Shown: one piece after another, positions 3,506 to 12,530 of the stretch | Numbering within the stretch: the stretch's first letter is position 1 | Layout: each line of letters starts with the position of its first letter | DNA from: a virus | IMG/VR virus record: IMGVR_UViG_3300044691_000429 | Coordinates: 1 to 64,000 of that record | Reading direction: 5' to 3' (one strand) | DNA: 64,000 nucleotides | Made by a program: the position numbers and the translations under genes | Notes under the pieces: model-generated | The model's database searches: none | What the model was told of the DNA's origin: nothing | The model's input: only the letters and a program-made list of their open reading frames with translations

Positions 3506-3790
3506 ATGGTCATCAAGAAATTGCACGACATGGGCCTGCGCAGCGAGCACGCCTACCTCGCCGCGTTCGCCTCCATCGGCATGACGGTCTTCACCTGGGC
3601 CGGATCCCTCAAGGCCGATCCCAGCGCCGACCTCGCCCGCGCCGACCGGTGGGGAATTTTCGTCGGAGAGTGGGCCCCCACGTTCTTCGGCCTCGGTCTC
3701 GCGCTGTCGCAGTTCGAGCAGCAGGACGGGACGCTGGAAGAAGCCGGCGTCCCGCACATTCGCGAGGCGAAGGAGCGGGCGGCGTCCTGA
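3506..3790 (+). CDS. Small membrane protein
   Basis: GGAG RBS, GC3-rich codons, two hydrophobic segments (…ADRWGIFVGEWAPTFFGLGLAL). Confidence 0.75.
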   Translation: MVIKKLHDMGLRSEHAYLAAFASIGMTVFTWAGSLKADPSADLARADRWGIFVGEWAPTFFGLGLALSQFEQQDGTLEEAGVPHIREAKERAAS

Positions 3791-3811: not shown

Positions 3812-3838
3812 AGCCCCCGGCCGGGGGGGTCGGGGGCT
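3812..3838. terminator. GC-rich hairpin between convergent gene and CRISPR-like array
   Basis: AGCCCCCGGCC ... GGTCGGGGGCT inverted repeat. Confidence 0.6.
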
Positions 3839-4038
3839 GTCGTAACCCCGCAGGTGCGGGGAGCAGGGTCATCCACCGACAGTTAGCCGGTTCATCCCCG
3901 CATGCACGGGGAAGGGCGGTGCTGTGAATCTGGACCACTCATCGGGATCGGTCCACCTCCGCCTGCGCGGAGAGAGGTTGCGCTATGGATCTGCGCCACC
4001 AGCCAGAACCGGTACACCCCCGCGCGAGCGGGGAGTTC
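3838..4038 (-). CRISPR. Orphan degenerate type I-E-like mini-array: 4 repeats, 3 spacers (32, 32, 21 nt)
   Basis: Minus-strand 29-nt repeats GAACTCCCCGCTCGCGCGGGGGTGTACCG (4038-4010), CCTCTCTCCGCGCAGGCGGAGGTGGACCG (3977-3949), CCCTTCCCCGTGCATGCGGGGATGAACCG (3916-3888), CTGCTCCCCGCACCTGCGGGGTTACGACA (3866-3838); 61-bp period for the first three; no cas genes recognised in window. Confidence 0.85.
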
Positions 4039-4040
4039 GC

Positions 4041-4069
4041 CAACCGGGGCGGGCTTAACGCCCCGGTTG
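4041..4069. repeat. Perfect 11-bp hairpin just upstream of the array
   Basis: CAACCGGGGCG-ggcttaa-CGCCCCGGTTG. Confidence 0.8.
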
Positions 4070-4146
4070 AACGCCTTCACCCTAGCGTGCCATGTCGTCC
4101 GGCGGGGTCGGAATGCCTCAAGAGCGAGGCACTGTCAGCGAACCTC

Positions 4147-4176
4147 TTGACGCTTCCTATTTTAGGAAGCTACGGT
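4147..4176 (+). promoter_or_regulatory. Housekeeping-type promoter with palindromic operator in the spacer
   Basis: TTGACG (4147)-N18-TACGGT (4171); GCTTCCTA-ttt-TAGGAAGC at 4152-4170. Confidence 0.8.
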
Positions 4177-4228
4177 TACGCCATCGGGTCAGGGGAACAG
4201 CCCCAGACCCCGCCGGAAGGAACCGGAC

Positions 4229-5218
4229 ATGACCAGCACCGTCCGCATCATCCCCTGCACCGAACCGGCCGGCCTGCACCGGCACTTCGGCCAGGAGGGC
4301 GAGGCCCAGCCCTGCTACATCGAACTCGACCTCCGTGCGGACACTCTCCTTGCGACCGTGGACGTCGAAGTCGGCGGCGCCGTCCCGTTCTCGACCCACT
4401 ACGGCTTCGAACGCCGCTACGGCATTCCCGTCCTCACCGCCGAGGCGGCGAACCGTGCGATGGAGGCGCTGCGGCCCTTCGCGGAGCGGATCCTCGCCGA
4501 CTGGGAGGAGCACTGGAACGGCGAAAACATGGTCGCCCGCCTCGGAGAGGACGCCAAGGCCGCCGAGAGCGCCATCTCCGACCACCTCGGCCTCGGAGAA
4601 GCTTCCTACGGCGGTGAGGGCGTCTTCGACGCGTCCGACCTGGTTGCGGAGTGGGACCTGGAAGGCGCTGTCAACGGCCTGGAGGCCGACGAGTACGACA
4701 TCATCGCCGACACCACGGACGACCGCCTCGCGGAGATCGCCTCCGAGATCACCGAGGGTCTTGCGGCGAGCGGAGAGAGCAGCGTGGCCGTCGTCCACGG
4801 CCTGGACGAGTACCTCGCGGAGATCCGCGACGGCCTTGCCGAGGCGGAGCGGATGAGTGACGCCGAGTTCCGGGTGCTGCGGGAGTCCCTCGGGCTGACC
4901 GCGGACTGGCTCGCCGGGCACCTGTCCGTCTCGAACCGCACCGTCCGCCACTGGGAGCAGGGCAAGTACCCGGTGCCCCACGGCGTCGGCAAGACCCTGC
5001 GCGACCTGGAGGAGGAGACCGCGGCCCTGGTGAAGGAGACCGCGGACGAACTGCTGGAGGACTACGCGACCGGCCCGCAGCCTGAGATCACGGTGTACCG
5101 CACGGACGAGGCGTACCTCGCCAGCGACCCGGAGCCGGTCCGGTCTGCGTCGTGGCACCGCGCGTTCGTCGCCCGCGTCGCACAGCAGGCGCCGGTGACC
5201 ATCACCTACGACGCCTGA
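4229..5218 (+). CDS. Acidic N-terminal domain fused to Aca2/YdiL (DUF1870)-like HTH repressor; candidate Acr-Aca fusion
   Basis: C-terminal MSDAEFRVLRESLGLTADWLAGHLSVSNRTVRHWEQGKYPVP...YRTD...ASWHRAFVARV from 4853; N-terminal 208 aa D/E-rich, unrecognised. Confidence 0.75.
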   Translation: MTSTVRIIPCTEPAGLHRHFGQEGEAQPCYIELDLRADTLLATVDVEVGGAVPFSTHYGFERRYGIPVLTAEAANRAMEALRPFAERILADWEEHWNGENMVARLGEDAKAAESAISDHLGLGEASYGGEGVFDASDLVAEWDLEGAVNGLEADEYDIIADTTDDRLAEIASEITEGLAASGESSVAVVHGLDEYLAEIRDGLAEAERMSDAEFRVLRESLGLTADWLAGHLSVSNRTVRHWEQGKYPVPHGVGKTLRDLEEETAALVKETADELLEDYATGPQPEITVYRTDEAYLASDPEPVRSASWHRAFVARVAQQAPVTITYDA

Positions 5219-6502: not shown

Positions 6503-6591
6503 CGCAACAGAGTATCGCAACAGGGTTGCGCGGTCACTCCCTAGCGCGCTACTTTGAATCGCAACAAAGAAGCGATTGCATAAAGCGCAAC
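6503..6591. promoter_or_regulatory. Divergent promoter region with CGCAAC-N3-GTTGCG operator and extra CGCAAC half-sites
   Basis: Palindrome at 6516-6530; half-sites near 6503, 6560, 6586. Confidence 0.65.
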
Positions 6592-6602
6592 AGGGGGACC
6601 CG

Positions 6603-6923
6603 ATGACCCGCACCGCCCGCCGCACGATCCGCAGCATCCGCCGCAGCATCCGCGCCGCAGTCCAGGCCGGTCAGAAGCTCGTCACCGCCGTGCGCGGGGC
6701 GAGGTTCGGCGTGCTGGTCGCCCTGTTCGCCGCGATCGACCGGGGCGCCACCGTGCGGATCGGCTACGTCGACTCCAAGGGCGTCGCCTCCGTCCGCGAC
6801 ATCACCCCGCACCGCCTCGACCCCACCACCGCCGGGAACATCACCTGCCGCGCGTTCGACCACCGCGACGGCGAGGACACCACGTTCCGGGTCGACCGGA
6901 TGACCAGCCTGGGGGTCGGTTAG
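6603..6923 (+). CDS. Stand-alone WYL-domain protein
   Basis: AIDRGATVRIGYVDSKGVASVRDITPHRL...RAFDHRDGEDTTFRVDRM. Confidence 0.85.
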   Translation: MTRTARRTIRSIRRSIRAAVQAGQKLVTAVRGARFGVLVALFAAIDRGATVRIGYVDSKGVASVRDITPHRLDPTTAGNITCRAFDHRDGEDTTFRVDRMTSLGVG

Positions 6924-9209: not shown

Positions 9210-9434
9210 GTGTACCTCCACCAGTTGCGCGCCGCGATGGCCACGATCCGCGCCCGCTGGGAGCACGGGCACGACGGGCTCACCCCGGGGTGCGCGCTGT
9301 GCGCCGACGAGCAGGCCGAGGTGCGGGCGCTCATCGCCGTCGACCGGGCGCTGACGGGGCGGCACGAAACCCGCTGGCCGGCCCCGCACGGAACGTCCAC
9401 CATCAGGACCACCCACCAGAAAGGCCCGCTGTGA
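9210..9434 (+). CDS. Hypothetical protein
   Basis: GAGGAG RBS; GTGA overlap with RNA ligase. Confidence 0.55.
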   Translation: MYLHQLRAAMATIRARWEHGHDGLTPGCALCADEQAEVRALIAVDRALTGRHETRWPAPHGTSTIRTTHQKGPL

Positions 9435-10558
9435 CCCAGCTCGACAGCCTCATCCCGCCCGCAGACCTGGCCGCCGCGATCGAGGCTGGCCACGTCACCC
9501 GCAAGACCCACCCGGCGCTGCCTCTCTCGATCTACACCTACACGCGGGAGTGCCAGTACGGGCACATCTGGACGCCGGTCACGATGCGGTGCCGCGGCCT
9601 GATCTCTGACGACGTGTCCGGCGAGGTGGTGGCCCTGCCGTTCCCGAAGATTTTCGTGACCGGCATGCACGGCGTCTTCGATTTCGCGCCGCCGCTCCCG
9701 GCCGAGCCGTTCGAGATCTTCGAGAAGGCCGACGGCTCGCTGATCATCGCGTTCTACTACGACGGCCGGTGGCACGCCGCGTCCAAGGGCTCGTTCATCA
9801 GCGAGCAGGCCGTGTGGGCGCAGGAAGTCCTCGACAGCGCGGACCTGAGCGGCCTCGACACGGGCCTGACGCACCTGGCCGAGGCGATCTACCCGGCCAA
9901 CCGCATCGTCGTGGACTACGGCTCGCGCGAAGAGCTGATGCTGCTGGCCGCCTACCGGCCGGCCGACGGGACCGAAGCCCCGCTGTCCGAGGTGGCCTCC
10001 CAGTGGAAGCCGGTCGGCCCCGTCGTCCGGTCGTGGGGCCTGAGCGATGGTCTCGCCGAGCTGGAGCAGCTTGCCGTCGCGAGCACGACTCTCGCCGGCG
10101 CCACGGTCGGCGGCACCGAAGAGGAGGGCTACGTCATCCGGTACGCCTCCGGTGCCCGCGCGAAGATCAAGCTGTCCGCCTACCTGACGCTGCACAAGCT
10201 GTTCACCGGCACCAACGAGCGCACCATCTGGGAGGTGCTGGCGTCCGGTCAGGAGCCCGCCGTGCTGTTCGACCAGGTCCCGGACGAGTTCGCCGACTGG
10301 GCCCGTGGGATCGCGGCCGGCCTGCGCGAGCAGCACGACCTGCTCGTTGGCGAGGCCACCGACGCCTACGGAACCGTCATGGCGACGCTCCCCGCCGACC
10401 CCGACCGGAAGACCTTCGCGCTGGCCGCGGTGAAGTCCGAGTACCGGTCCGCCCTGTTCCTCGTCCACGACGGCCGCGACAAGGCGGTCGGCGACTGGGC
10501 GTGGAAGCAGATCAAGCCCCGCGGCGACAAGCCGTTCAAGAACGACGAGGAAGGCTGA
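9431..10558 (+). CDS. T4 Rnl1-like RNA ligase
   Basis: CRGLI, PFPKIF, motif I EKADGSL, motif IV EEGYVI, motif V KIKL. Confidence 0.92.
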   Translation: MTQLDSLIPPADLAAAIEAGHVTRKTHPALPLSIYTYTRECQYGHIWTPVTMRCRGLISDDVSGEVVALPFPKIFVTGMHGVFDFAPPLPAEPFEIFEKADGSLIIAFYYDGRWHAASKGSFISEQAVWAQEVLDSADLSGLDTGLTHLAEAIYPANRIVVDYGSREELMLLAAYRPADGTEAPLSEVASQWKPVGPVVRSWGLSDGLAELEQLAVASTTLAGATVGGTEEEGYVIRYASGARAKIKLSAYLTLHKLFTGTNERTIWEVLASGQEPAVLFDQVPDEFADWARGIAAGLREQHDLLVGEATDAYGTVMATLPADPDRKTFALAAVKSEYRSALFLVHDGRDKAVGDWAWKQIKPRGDKPFKNDEEG

Positions 10559-10559
10559 C

Positions 10560-11477
10560 ATGCCCACGATCCACGTCATGACCGGGTTGCCAGCAAGCGG
10601 CAAAACAACGGCGGCCCGCCAGATGCTCGCCGAGTCCAAGGGCCGCATCCGGCGCGTCAACCTGGACGACCTGCGGGCGATGCTCGACTACTCCGGCACC
10701 GGTGAGCGGGTGTGGTCCCACGCCCACGAGCAGACCGCGCTGGGCATCCAGGACTCTGCGGTGCGCGAGGCCATAGCGGGCGGCTTCGATGTCGTGGTCG
10801 ACAACACGCACCTGACGCCGCATATCCCGAAGCGCCTCAAGGCCGCCGCGCTCGGGCAGGCCGCATTCCAGGTGCACGACTTCACCGGCGTGCCCATCGA
10901 GGAGTGCCTGCGCCGGGATGCCGTCCGGGAGGTGTCGGTCGGCGAAGACGTGATCCGCAAGCTGCACGCCAACCACGTCAAGGCCACCCGCAACGGCTGG
11001 CGCCTCACCGATGCGTGGATGAACGACGCCCCGGCCGTCGAGCACTACGTGCCCGACGTCTCGCTGCCGTCCGCGATCATGTGCGACATCGACGGGACCC
11101 TCGCGCTCATGGGCGACCGCGGCCCGTTCGACTTCGCCCGCTGCGGCGAAGACCTCCTCAACGAGTCCGTGCGCCGGGCGCTCGTCTCGTTTCGCCTGGC
11201 GAACGACGACCGGATCGTCCTGCTGTCCGGCCGCGGCGACGACTTCCGTACCGAGACCGAGGCGTGGTTGGCCAAGCACGACGTGCCGTTCGACGAGTTG
11301 TGGATGCGCGCGACCGGCGACTCCCGCCGGGACGACATCGTGAAGGCCGAGCTGTTCAACGAGCACGTCAGGAACCGGTTCCACGTGCGGGTCAGCCTGG
11401 ACGACCGCGACAGGGTCGTGGCCCTCTGGCGGCGCATGGGGCTGCCGACGTGGCAGGTCAACTACGGAGCCTTCTAG
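10560..11477 (+). CDS. Polynucleotide 5'-kinase/3'-phosphatase (T4 PseT-like)
   Basis: GLPASGKT P-loop, DxxR, HAD DIDGTL, SGR, DDR..V..W...G...WQV. Confidence 0.93.
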   Translation: MPTIHVMTGLPASGKTTAARQMLAESKGRIRRVNLDDLRAMLDYSGTGERVWSHAHEQTALGIQDSAVREAIAGGFDVVVDNTHLTPHIPKRLKAAALGQAAFQVHDFTGVPIEECLRRDAVREVSVGEDVIRKLHANHVKATRNGWRLTDAWMNDAPAVEHYVPDVSLPSAIMCDIDGTLALMGDRGPFDFARCGEDLLNESVRRALVSFRLANDDRIVLLSGRGDDFRTETEAWLAKHDVPFDELWMRATGDSRRDDIVKAELFNEHVRNRFHVRVSLDDRDRVVALWRRMGLPTWQVNYGAF

Positions 11478-11696: not shown

Positions 11697-12530
11697 GTGG
11701 AATCCTCTCGATCCCTCGCCGCAGTGCCACCGCAGTCGGACCGGAAGCCTCGTAGCTACGAGGAGATCGTGCGCGCGATCTACAACGACCGACGTGCCGA
11801 CCTCAAGCAGCGGGAGTTGCTTATGGCGGTGGCCTACGCCCTGTACGTGGCACGCGAAGAGGGGGTGAGCCCGCTACGGGAGGCCCGCCGGGTGCTGGGG
11901 CGCGAGAGCGGCCTCGCGCGGTACGACCAACTGATGCAGGCAGACCTACCCCGCTACGAGTCGCCGAGGGAAGCCGGGAACTGGGGACCCAGCAACGCCC
12001 CGTCGTGCGAGGCCCCGCGCCTGCGCCCGTACCGGCAACGCCTCGGCAAGTCCAGCGAGCCGGACCCCACCGCCCCGGTTCCCATCCGCCCCTACGAACT
12101 GCCCCCGGAGCTGGCCGCGCTGAAGGAACAGGCAATGGCGACGTACACGCCGCCTCGGGACTGGCGAACAGAGGACGGCGTGTGTGGCGCCCAGTCTCAC
12201 CACAAGGTCATCGAGAAGGACCCGCGCACCGGATGGATCACCCCGCGCTGGTTCTGCAAGCGGCACAAGGACCACGCCGACCGTGTGGCCGAGCAGGTCC
12301 GTGCACAGAACGAAGCCGCGCCCGAGCCGGTCCCCAATCGCGGCGGGCTGCTGCCCTGCTACTTCAAAGCCGACTGGGAGAAGGTCTACCGCCACTACGT
12401 CGGGGAGTTCTGGGAGCCCCCGAAGTACGGGCTGTGCGCAGACGACTGGCCGACGCCCGGCGAGTCATTCACGGCGCACCGGCGCCTGCGCATGGTCCTC
12501 AGCGTTGACGACTCCGAGGGCCAGTCGTGA
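11697..12530 (+). CDS. Hypothetical protein coupled to recombinase
   Basis: AAGGAG RBS; GTGA overlap with recombinase. Confidence 0.7.
   Translation: MESSRSLAAVPPQSDRKPRSYEEIVRAIYNDRRADLKQRELLMAVAYALYVAREEGVSPLREARRVLGRESGLARYDQLMQADLPRYESPREAGNWGPSNAPSCEAPRLRPYRQRLGKSSEPDPTAPVPIRPYELPPELAALKEQAMATYTPPRDWRTEDGVCGAQSHHKVIEKDPRTGWITPRWFCKRHKDHADRVAEQVRAQNEAAPEPVPNRGGLLPCYFKADWEKVYRHYVGEFWEPPKYGLCADDWPTPGESFTAHRRLRMVLSVDDSEGQS

Follow-up and report, generated by a model that had tools for sequence, protein, structure and literature searches.

A mixed-repeat type I-E mini-array in a putative Streptomyces phage-plasmid as a candidate RNA anti-CRISPR

What use would a virus without a single cas gene have for a row of four CRISPR repeats, no two of which are alike? 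The question is raised by a locus in IMG/VR virus record IMGVR_UViG_3300044691_000429, of which positions 1 to 64,000 form the window. Four type I-E-like repeats of 29 nucleotides (nt), here called R1 to R4 and separated by the pseudo-spacers S1 to S3, span positions 4038–3838 of the window on the minus strand. We favour, with moderate confidence, the view that the phage here encodes an RNA anti-CRISPR array of a kind already published as Cracr or Racr, which would be processed and loaded by the I-E machinery of the host and whose mixed repeats would suit several host lineages; it may work as a guide (a Cracr proper) or as a decoy. The original prediction, made from the letters alone, had named a candidate RNA anti-CRISPR or Cascade-hijacking array, and it was right in kind, given a cas-less element, a panel of host repeats, a neighbour gene with an Aca2 fold and the recurrence of such arrays on other elements.

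The anatomy of the locus is that of a type I-E array in miniature (Table 1). Inspection of the coordinates confirmed four I-E-like repeats on the minus strand, with the first three at a period of 61 base pairs (bp), and it bore out the earlier description of repeats that all differ in sequence, keep their stems and, in R1–R3, carry 8-nt handles. Every repeat follows the same plan, which reads, from 5′ to 3′, a 5-nt flank, a 6-bp stem, a 4-nt loop, the returning 6 nt of the stem and an 8-nt handle. The stem starts lie 61, 61 and 50 bp apart, so that R1–R3 stand in a 29 + 32 register and S3 is 11 nt shorter than S1 and S2. Stems are perfect in all four repeats (4/4) and no two loops are the same; R1–R3 retain an 8-nt handle of the NTGNACCG type, and the handle of R4 is degenerate. 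Pairwise identity between repeats is low, at 16–21 of 29 positions (55–72%), and it is unevenly spread: among R1–R3 it amounts to 6/15 in the flank, 14/18 and 16/18 in the stem, 5/12 in the loop and 19/24 in the handle. Conserved stems and handles beside freely varying loops and flanks argue for constraint and fit the needs of Cas6e and Cascade. The pseudo-spacers S1 and S2 are also alike, with 18 of 32 positions identical in register (p ~0.002). A degenerate I-E pattern has three matches in the 64-kilobase (kb) window against 0.27 expected, a number reached by none of 100 shuffled sequences (0/100), and a looser hairpin scan detected no second such cluster in the whole 93-kb record. The array sits between a small plus-strand gene that ends at 3790 and a plus-strand gene that starts at 4229. 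A terminator-like hairpin closes it, and the perfect hairpin just upstream of R1 may be an insulator or may form the structured 5′ end of the transcript.

Table 1. Features of the array locus in window coordinates, with the related arrays of the class
Feature	Position	Strand	Description	Basis
R1	4010..4038	-	Repeat mimic: flank GAACT, stem CCCCGC/GCGGGG, loop TCGC, handle GTGTACCG	
S1	3978..4009	-	32-nt pseudo-spacer	
R2	3949..3977	-	Mimic of second host I-E class: stem CTCCGC/GCGGAG, loop GCAG, handle GTGGACCG	
S2	3917..3948	-	32-nt pseudo-spacer	
R3	3888..3916	-	Repeat mimic: stem CCCCGT/GCGGGG with a G-U pair, loop GCAT, handle ATGAACCG	
S3	3867..3887	-	21-nt short pseudo-spacer	
R4	3838..3866	-	Terminal repeat: first 21 nt canonical (CTGCT CCCCGC ACCT GCGGGG), degenerate handle TTACGACA	
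Terminator-like G+C-rich hairpin	3812..3838		Directly after R4; also 3′ of the upstream plus-strand gene	Sequence and fold
Perfect 11-bp hairpin	4041..4069	-	2 nt upstream of R1	Alignment and fold
Aca2-like gene promoter (candidate)	4147..4176	+	TTGACG, 18 nt, TACGGT; the spacer is filled by a 19-bp palindromic candidate operator (4152-4170)	
Divergent neighbour gene	4229..5218	+	329-amino-acid protein: N-terminal PF26929 (unknown function), C-terminal helix-turn-helix of Aca2 fold	
Class members L038/L150, L140/L165, L141/L146, L142-L145, L147, L149, L151, L156-L163			I-E mini-arrays on actinomycete contigs	

The differences between the repeats become intelligible when they are set beside the repeats of possible hosts. 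Our host survey comprised 400 Streptomyces genomes with their plasmids and prophages, a sample of species in which an I-E casA was found in 166 genomes. It contained at least three native repeat types: one with a CTGCT flank, a CCCCGC stem and ATG- or TTG-type handles; a second with a GTGTTCC handle (in genomes G286, G067 and G196); and a third with a CTCCGC/GCGGAG stem and GTGAnCC handles, which is paired with a divergent casA class. R1 is identical at 25 of 29 positions to a native array repeat of G075 (L326) and resembles the GTGTTCCG-handle type. The stem-loop of R2 is identical to array repeats of G112 (75 copies) and G090, and its handle, GTGGACCG, to that of the first pseudo-repeat in two host CreR units (L244 and L360). 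R3, G-U pair included, is identical over 24 nt to a native repeat in G382 (L298) and near-identical to repeats of G089 and G330, and the first 21 nt of R4 are identical to an array repeat of G301 (L324); these two resemble two CTGCT-CCCCGC types. Judged by sequence, every repeat of the phage has its own counterpart among the host variants, and the four span both host casA classes, so the predicted panel of repeat variants is real. BLAST also aligned the module over long stretches to G286, G292, G089 and G301; these alignments were periodic matches to ordinary arrays and not spacer homology, and they were set aside.

This comparison also removes one argument that had been made for the locus. 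The original prediction took covariation among the stems as showing selection on RNA structure, a claim that fails because the compensatory CTCCGC/GCGGAG and the wobble CCCCGT/GCGGGG stems are themselves native host repeats (the former in the many-copied arrays of G112, the latter in arrays of G382 and G330), and were thus borrowed rather than evolved in place. By contrast, the same matches make it scarcely credible that the hairpins have nothing to do with CRISPR and are protein-binding sites or generic terminator-like elements. Although G+C-rich hairpins are common in DNA of 70% G+C, and Rfam returned no family, CRISPR or otherwise, above threshold for the array region, such elements would not be expected to match native I-E repeats over 21–25 nt including the 8-nt handle, to keep an exact 29 + 32 register and to exceed chance expectation so far.

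The element that carries the array is itself Cas-less. The window is the first part of a complete virus record of 93,141 bp from a soil metagenome, with a 127-bp terminal repeat and 70% G+C. Six-frame searches of the whole record for Cas6e, Cas7e, Cas5, Cas1 and Cas3-HD gave no match (the Escherichia coli control was silent for two of the families). Because the record is complete, the absence of cas genes, first noted for 64 kb, extends to the entire element; a cas operon elsewhere on it, which had been named in advance as an outcome that would count against the prediction, was looked for and not found. The viral backbone points to Streptomyces. The portal is 49% identical to that of Streptomyces phage Dagobah; the record further encodes an HK97-type capsid protein, a tyrosine integrase, a GntR regulator and a protein with a weak FtsK-like match; and an open reading frame (ORF) of 1266 amino acids, of tape-measure size, is 30% identical over its middle third to the longest tail-region ORF of ZL12. 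This backbone recalls the Streptomyces plasmid-phage pZL12, and the element appears to be a Streptomyces phage-plasmid.

We found related arrays at three distances. In a ~95%-identical contig from another soil metagenome, no handle has changed, the sole stem change turns the G-U pair of R3 into G-C, and S1 is still 32 nt long despite one insertion and one deletion. The two contigs diverge completely just upstream of R1, which has the look of cassette behaviour. Further away, ZL12 (NC_013420, ~83.8–84.0 kb; L132, 2890–3080) carries an unannotated homologous I-E module of three repeats, with periods of 61 and 49 bp and a terminator hairpin after the last repeat; upstream of it lie a palindromic operator and a small divergent ORF that is likewise unannotated. 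The two elements share only ~5 genes. The modules are alike in their homologous repeats, their periods, a similar terminator and an upstream palindrome with a divergent gene, and differ in that the ZL12 module lacks an R1–S1 unit, has pseudo-spacers of its own and adjoins another neighbour gene. Because the ZL12 repeats align with R2–R4, R1–S1 is an extra unit in the phage. As a separate observation, the best-conserved gene between the two elements is a 277-amino-acid ORF at 11697–12530, which has no Pfam match and is 60% identical to ZL12 gp109; it lies within a few kb of the mini-array in both.

At the greatest distance, a search for the short-period signature returned 29 loci (7 viral, 22 genome), mostly from Streptomyces, Kitasatospora and other actinomycetes. 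Most are cas-less mini-arrays of 3–7 repeats with loops all different, on viral or genome contigs, with periods of 43, 48–50, 55 or 61–63 bp and a degenerate last handle. Of 69 spacers in the class, 31, more than have any other format, give a period of 49–50 bp, corresponding to a spacer length of 20–21 nt, and S3 has this format too. The short pseudo-spacers of the class form families in which the 5′ (seed) part is conserved across unrelated elements. A terminator-like hairpin after the last repeat also occurs in L137 and in L343. The latter lies on an 84-kb plasmid (NZ_CP108117), where a two-repeat I-E mini-array with a terminator (L343, 4640–4750) is convergent with a homologue of the Aca2-like gene; apart from one indel, the spacer of this mini-array is similar to the pseudo-spacer of the host CreR in L172. 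By these comparisons, the phage locus is one of a widespread class of I-E mini-arrays, with mixed repeats and often with short spacers, that are carried by mobile elements of actinomycetes.

Such recurrence bears on the suspicion that the locus is a non-functional relic, that is, a fragment of a host CRISPR array gained by recombination and now decaying. The low identity between the repeats, the degenerate last handle, one truncated spacer and the failure to find a target for the pseudo-spacers would all be expected of a relic. However, a single decaying array cannot give four repeats with perfect stems that each match a different native class, nor does decay keep stems and handles while loops vary. 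Many unrelated elements have arrays of this architecture, with pseudo-spacer families conserved among them, and so does ZL12, which shares almost no genes with the phage; the change seen in the soil variant preserves structure; and the unit, beside a gene for an Aca2-fold protein, has a hairpin at one end and a terminator at the other. We therefore regard a relic as unlikely.

On the host side, the array has counterparts in the CreR circuits. Degenerate two-repeat CreR-type units lie upstream of casA in Streptomyces I-E loci, and 9 of the 12 that we examined have a site flanked by a protospacer adjacent motif (PAM; AAG in 7, AAC in 2), with 7–15 PAM-proximal matches, on the same strand and 130–250 bp away; a further unit, L360, has an AAG-flanked site with 16 PAM-proximal matches. 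Individual examples (L171 at 930–1313, L225, L236, L240, L244, L245 and L360) show 9–16 PAM-proximal matches. A PAM-flanked partial match is the signature of CreR-guided autorepression of cas genes, and in CreA/CreR systems truncated or partly matching guides repress transcription without cleavage (bioRxiv 10.1101/2023.03.10.532045). The second unit of the phage array (R2–S2–R3) shares a mixed layout with the host CreRs L243, L244 and L360, in which the first pseudo-repeat has a CTCCGC stem and a handle that reads GTGGACCG or GTGAACCG, and a second one, with a CCCCGC stem, follows after ~32 nt. Other members of the class come closer still. Beside a main-class casA, L198 has a CreR-like unit with a 20-nt pseudo-spacer (~790–870), and one conserved pseudo-spacer family of the class shares its first 13–14 nt, so that the class members that copy it qualify as Cracrs by the published definition. 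A shared GGGTCAGGGG motif in the 5′ untranslated region (UTR) of the Aca2-like gene, the host CreR of L172 and the L343 spacer was dropped, as it is part of a UTR stem-loop and the L343 spacer mismatches its own upstream region.

In the phage array, S1 is only weakly similar over its whole length to three host CreR pseudo-spacers (z 2.5–2.8, 63 tests), and S2 begins with ATCC, as does the pseudo-spacer of L244, but matches it at only 6 of 12 positions in register. Homologous host CreR pseudo-spacers of different strains agree at 20–31 of 32 positions, with a median of 10 of 32 for unrelated pairs; on this scale, the likeness between S1 and S2 appears to fall in the range of homologous CreR pseudo-spacers. 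It fits two guides for two target variants and, equally, a unit that was duplicated and has drifted.

The comparison of spacers with phages, plasmids and cas promoters that had been proposed as a check gave no protospacer or promoter target for S1–S3. No protospacer was found among 50,697 phage records or in the element itself, and an IMG/VR pattern scan with S2 was empty. A match of S1 in IMG/VR (22/32, two copies, with a TCT PAM, on a giant-virus contig of 30% G+C) was rejected as chance, as was a single metagenome match (Joint Genome Institute) of handle plus S2 seed, which lies inside a coding region and has no hairpin. These searches speak to the proposal that the locus is a mini-array competent for interference, with which the element would turn the Cascade and Cas3 of its host against rival phages or plasmids. 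S1 and S2 have the canonical length of 32 nt, the repeats look processable, the array has a terminator of its own, and the use of mini-arrays in conflicts between viruses is documented in literature that PMC10651486 and PMC11656645 cite. Nevertheless, we think an interference array improbable, as no protospacer was found in the phage records, IMG/VR, the 400 Streptomyces genomes or the element itself, S1 and S2 are related to each other in a way that is unlike independent spacer acquisition, and S3 is too short for normal interference.

A guide array might instead use host Cascade as a repressor of genes outside CRISPR, such as host defence or stress genes or the lysogeny or plasmid-maintenance switch of the element. 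The precedent of CreA/CreR repression by truncated or partial guides, the divergent orientation of the array and a regulator gene, and the short S3 are compatible with such a role. A CreA-like self-target was not found in the 93-kb genome, in which no seed-plus-PAM match of S1–S3 rose above shuffled controls, host genomes gave no recurrent match, and there is no positive evidence for such regulation; we give it a small chance of being correct.

Other results weigh against the RNA anti-CRISPR reading that we prefer. A consensus promoter scan recognised no promoter for the array, and when the entire transcript is folded to its minimum energy, R1 pairs with R3 in place of local hairpins; ordinary arrays, too, can adopt such alternative pairing. 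When the module was compared by BLAST with the 400 Streptomyces genomes, there was no spacer-only match, and no cognates of S1–S3 were found among 26 host pseudo-spacer windows (21 + 5), where in-register identity was at most 8/12. In 95 casA upstream regions, PAM-proximal matches to the pseudo-spacers did not exceed the shuffled null; in 27 further regions, a set without a null of its own, runs reached at most 9 and none had an AAG PAM. By the Cracr yardstick of at least 9 PAM-proximal matches, no cognate of S1–S3 was found among the 26 windows, ~122 casA upstream regions and 400 genomes of this Streptomyces sample. Spacers in the ~95%-identical soil contig have changed about as frequently as loops, indicating weak constraint on the guides and thereby leaning towards a decoy over a guide role.

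For an RNA anti-CRISPR array, we infer transcription, processing, loading and an effect on immunity as follows. Minus-strand transcription would start in the 4070–4228 region and run through R1-S1-R2-S2-R3-S3-R4 to the hairpin at 3838–3812. Host Cas6e would then cut at the 3′ base of every repeat hairpin, releasing three species like CRISPR RNAs (crRNAs), each with the 8-nt 5′ handle of one variant and the 3′ hairpin of the next, and these could be assembled into host Cascade. At a minimum, the products would compete as decoys with genuine crRNAs for Cas6e, Cas5, Cas7 and Cascade. Given a seed-plus-AAG match in the natural host, they might in addition guide Cascade to repress the promoter of host cas genes or of a safeguard toxin. 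A single transcript could be of use in several hosts, because the repeats copy at least three host types and these come from both casA classes of Streptomyces.

Beside the array lies a gene for an Aca2-fold protein. This divergent neighbour gene starts 190 bp from the array, and no validated acr gene was identified there. Its product scores above the Pfam cut-off for HTH_31 and Aca2_YdiL (PF08965, 27.3 bits against a cut-off of 23.8). An AlphaFold model of the 329-amino-acid protein reached a predicted local distance difference test (pLDDT) score of 93.7; a single-sequence model, at pLDDT 39, was unusable. Foldseek aligned the confident model to 7ezy, 7vjq and 7b5j with template modelling (TM) scores of 0.71–0.76, and VIA-align to 7vjo_B with a Z score of 14.4 and a root mean square deviation of 2.8 over 116 of 118 residues. 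In the model, the C-terminal 120 residues thus match solved Aca2 structures over their full length. The PF26929 domain had no structural match, which is not evidence of a new fold because the helix-turn-helix part dominated the match lists; a protein atlas search for the neighbour protein returned no usable match. Aca2 proper represses an acr operon through inverted repeats in the promoter, but the Aca2/YdiL fold is also found outside anti-CRISPR loci.

The neighbour protein belongs to a family on Streptomyces plasmids of 80–105 kb, with the closest homologues at 65–72% identity (P0002–P0008). A homologue of 52% identity, on plasmid NZ_CP108117, also adjoins an I-E mini-array, and a palindrome analogous to the candidate operator lies upstream of it; distant relatives of the gene in IMG/VR (L004–L012) have no I-E hairpins nearby. 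The consensus promoter scan did not list the candidate promoter of the neighbour gene. The palindrome in that promoter suggests that the Aca2-fold protein probably regulates its own expression, and the PF26929 domain may be a protein partner. A genuine Streptomyces I-E spacer (array G196:C439, L314) matches the phage in the promoter and operator region of this gene, positions 4162–4193, at 28 of 32 nt, with a perfect 12-nt seed and a score above all 842 shuffled controls, indicating that relatives of the element are under I-E attack. This phage has ATT where the PAM, AAG, would be expected, and this copy may therefore escape targeting. A 47-nt stretch at 4187–4233, which comprises the 5′ UTR stem-loop and the start codon, is found again, two changes apart and between unrelated flanks, on larger contigs from three further soil metagenome runs and looks like a mobile promoter/UTR cassette.

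Two further features lie near the array. A T4 Rnl1-like RNA ligase followed by a polynucleotide kinase-phosphatase is encoded at 9290–11477, within 7 kb of it; the two enzymes are the classic tRNA-repair pair that counters host anticodon nucleases. A small WYL-domain protein is encoded at 6576–6923, amid several short ORFs without a family match, and this region may be an anti-defence or regulatory island.

In a more ambitious version of the guide role, the array would not be copied from host CreRs but would be a universal adaptor, in which chimeric guides, with a 5′ handle and a 3′ hairpin from different I-E classes, program Cascade in unrelated Streptomyces hosts against a target such as a defence system or a competing plasmid, with the PF26929-Aca2 protein acting as a new protein anti-CRISPR alongside; we consider this a long shot. 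Should the more modest RNA anti-CRISPR reading hold, RNA-based anti-CRISPR arrays would extend to Streptomyces phage-plasmids, and a single transcript would mimic the repeats of both major Streptomyces I-E lineages. The side results may outweigh the locus itself: autoregulatory CreR mini-CRISPRs in Streptomyces, including a form with a 20-nt spacer, and mimics of them on many actinomycete mobile elements would bear on the frequent apparent silence of native streptomycete I-E systems and on the host range of plasmids and phages in an industrial genus. The PF26929-Aca2 fusion is in addition a candidate marker for anti-defence loci.

How, then, does the locus compare with known systems? Like a canonical I-E array, it has 29-nt repeats with an I-E stem-loop and an 8-nt handle part in a 61-bp register. 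A canonical array, however, has near-identical repeats, as do the genuine arrays L135, L260 and L304, whose repeats hardly vary; its spacers come from invaders, are unrelated to one another and have one length, and its replicon also carries cas genes. None of these features was found here. The viral and plasmid CRISPR mini-arrays reviewed for their part in inter-element conflict (PMC11656645) are likewise short, cas-less, borne on mobile elements and reliant on host Cas proteins, but they have near-identical repeats and spacers that match competitors, whereas the phage array has heterogeneous repeats and no protospacer was found for it. With host CreR and CreA it shares the order of pseudo-repeat, 20–34-nt pseudo-spacer and pseudo-repeat, the mix of CTCCGC and CCCCGC stems and one identical handle, GTGGACCG; host CreRs differ in lying next to casA, close to an AAG-flanked target, and the phage array has neither a cas neighbour nor a target that we could find.

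The Racr RNA anti-CRISPRs, which include RacrIE1 and RacrIE2 (Camara-Wilpert et al., Nature 2023, PMC10651486), are among the closest known systems. They too are repeat mimics on mobile elements without cas genes, near an anti-CRISPR-associated gene (here the divergent Aca2-fold gene 190 bp away), and a decoy action on Cas6 and Cas7 would need no target. A Racr inhibits interference by drawing Cas6 and Cas7 into aberrant subcomplexes. Racrs are solitary repeat units, whereas the phage locus is a four-repeat array with canonical or CreR-like spacers, and the rules of SRUFinder (PMC10651486) would set it aside as an array or mini-array. The Cracr arrays are the other close relatives: viral crRNA-like regulatory anti-CRISPR RNAs that mimic CreR (Liu et al., bioRxiv 10.1101/2024.10.29.618823), among which I-E arrays with two or three pseudo-spacers against variants of one CRISPR type occur in phages of three phyla including Actinomycetota. 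A Cracr matures with the help of Cas proteins and represses a cas or creT promoter. The defining match of a Cracr, at least 9 PAM-proximal bases to a host CreR or CreA or to a promoter target, was not found for S1–S3 in the Streptomyces sample; the host lineage here is Streptomyces, not Enterobacteria, and the four repeats of the phage array span two casA classes. In other respects the correspondence is close, above all with the two-spacer CracrIE of a Salmonella enterica prophage. Both arrays are phage-borne and outside any CRISPR–cas locus; both stack units of degenerate pseudo-repeats against variants; in both, pseudo-repeats similar to those of hosts retain a 5′ handle and a 3′ hairpin; and both are associated with genes of the Acr (anti-CRISPR) or Aca (anti-CRISPR-associated) type, with other Streptomyces members of the class copying a host CreR-like pseudo-spacer. 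The phage array is thus a good new example, and not a new principle, of a trick that was described between 2023 and 2026, including in the form of Racr and Cracr arrays.

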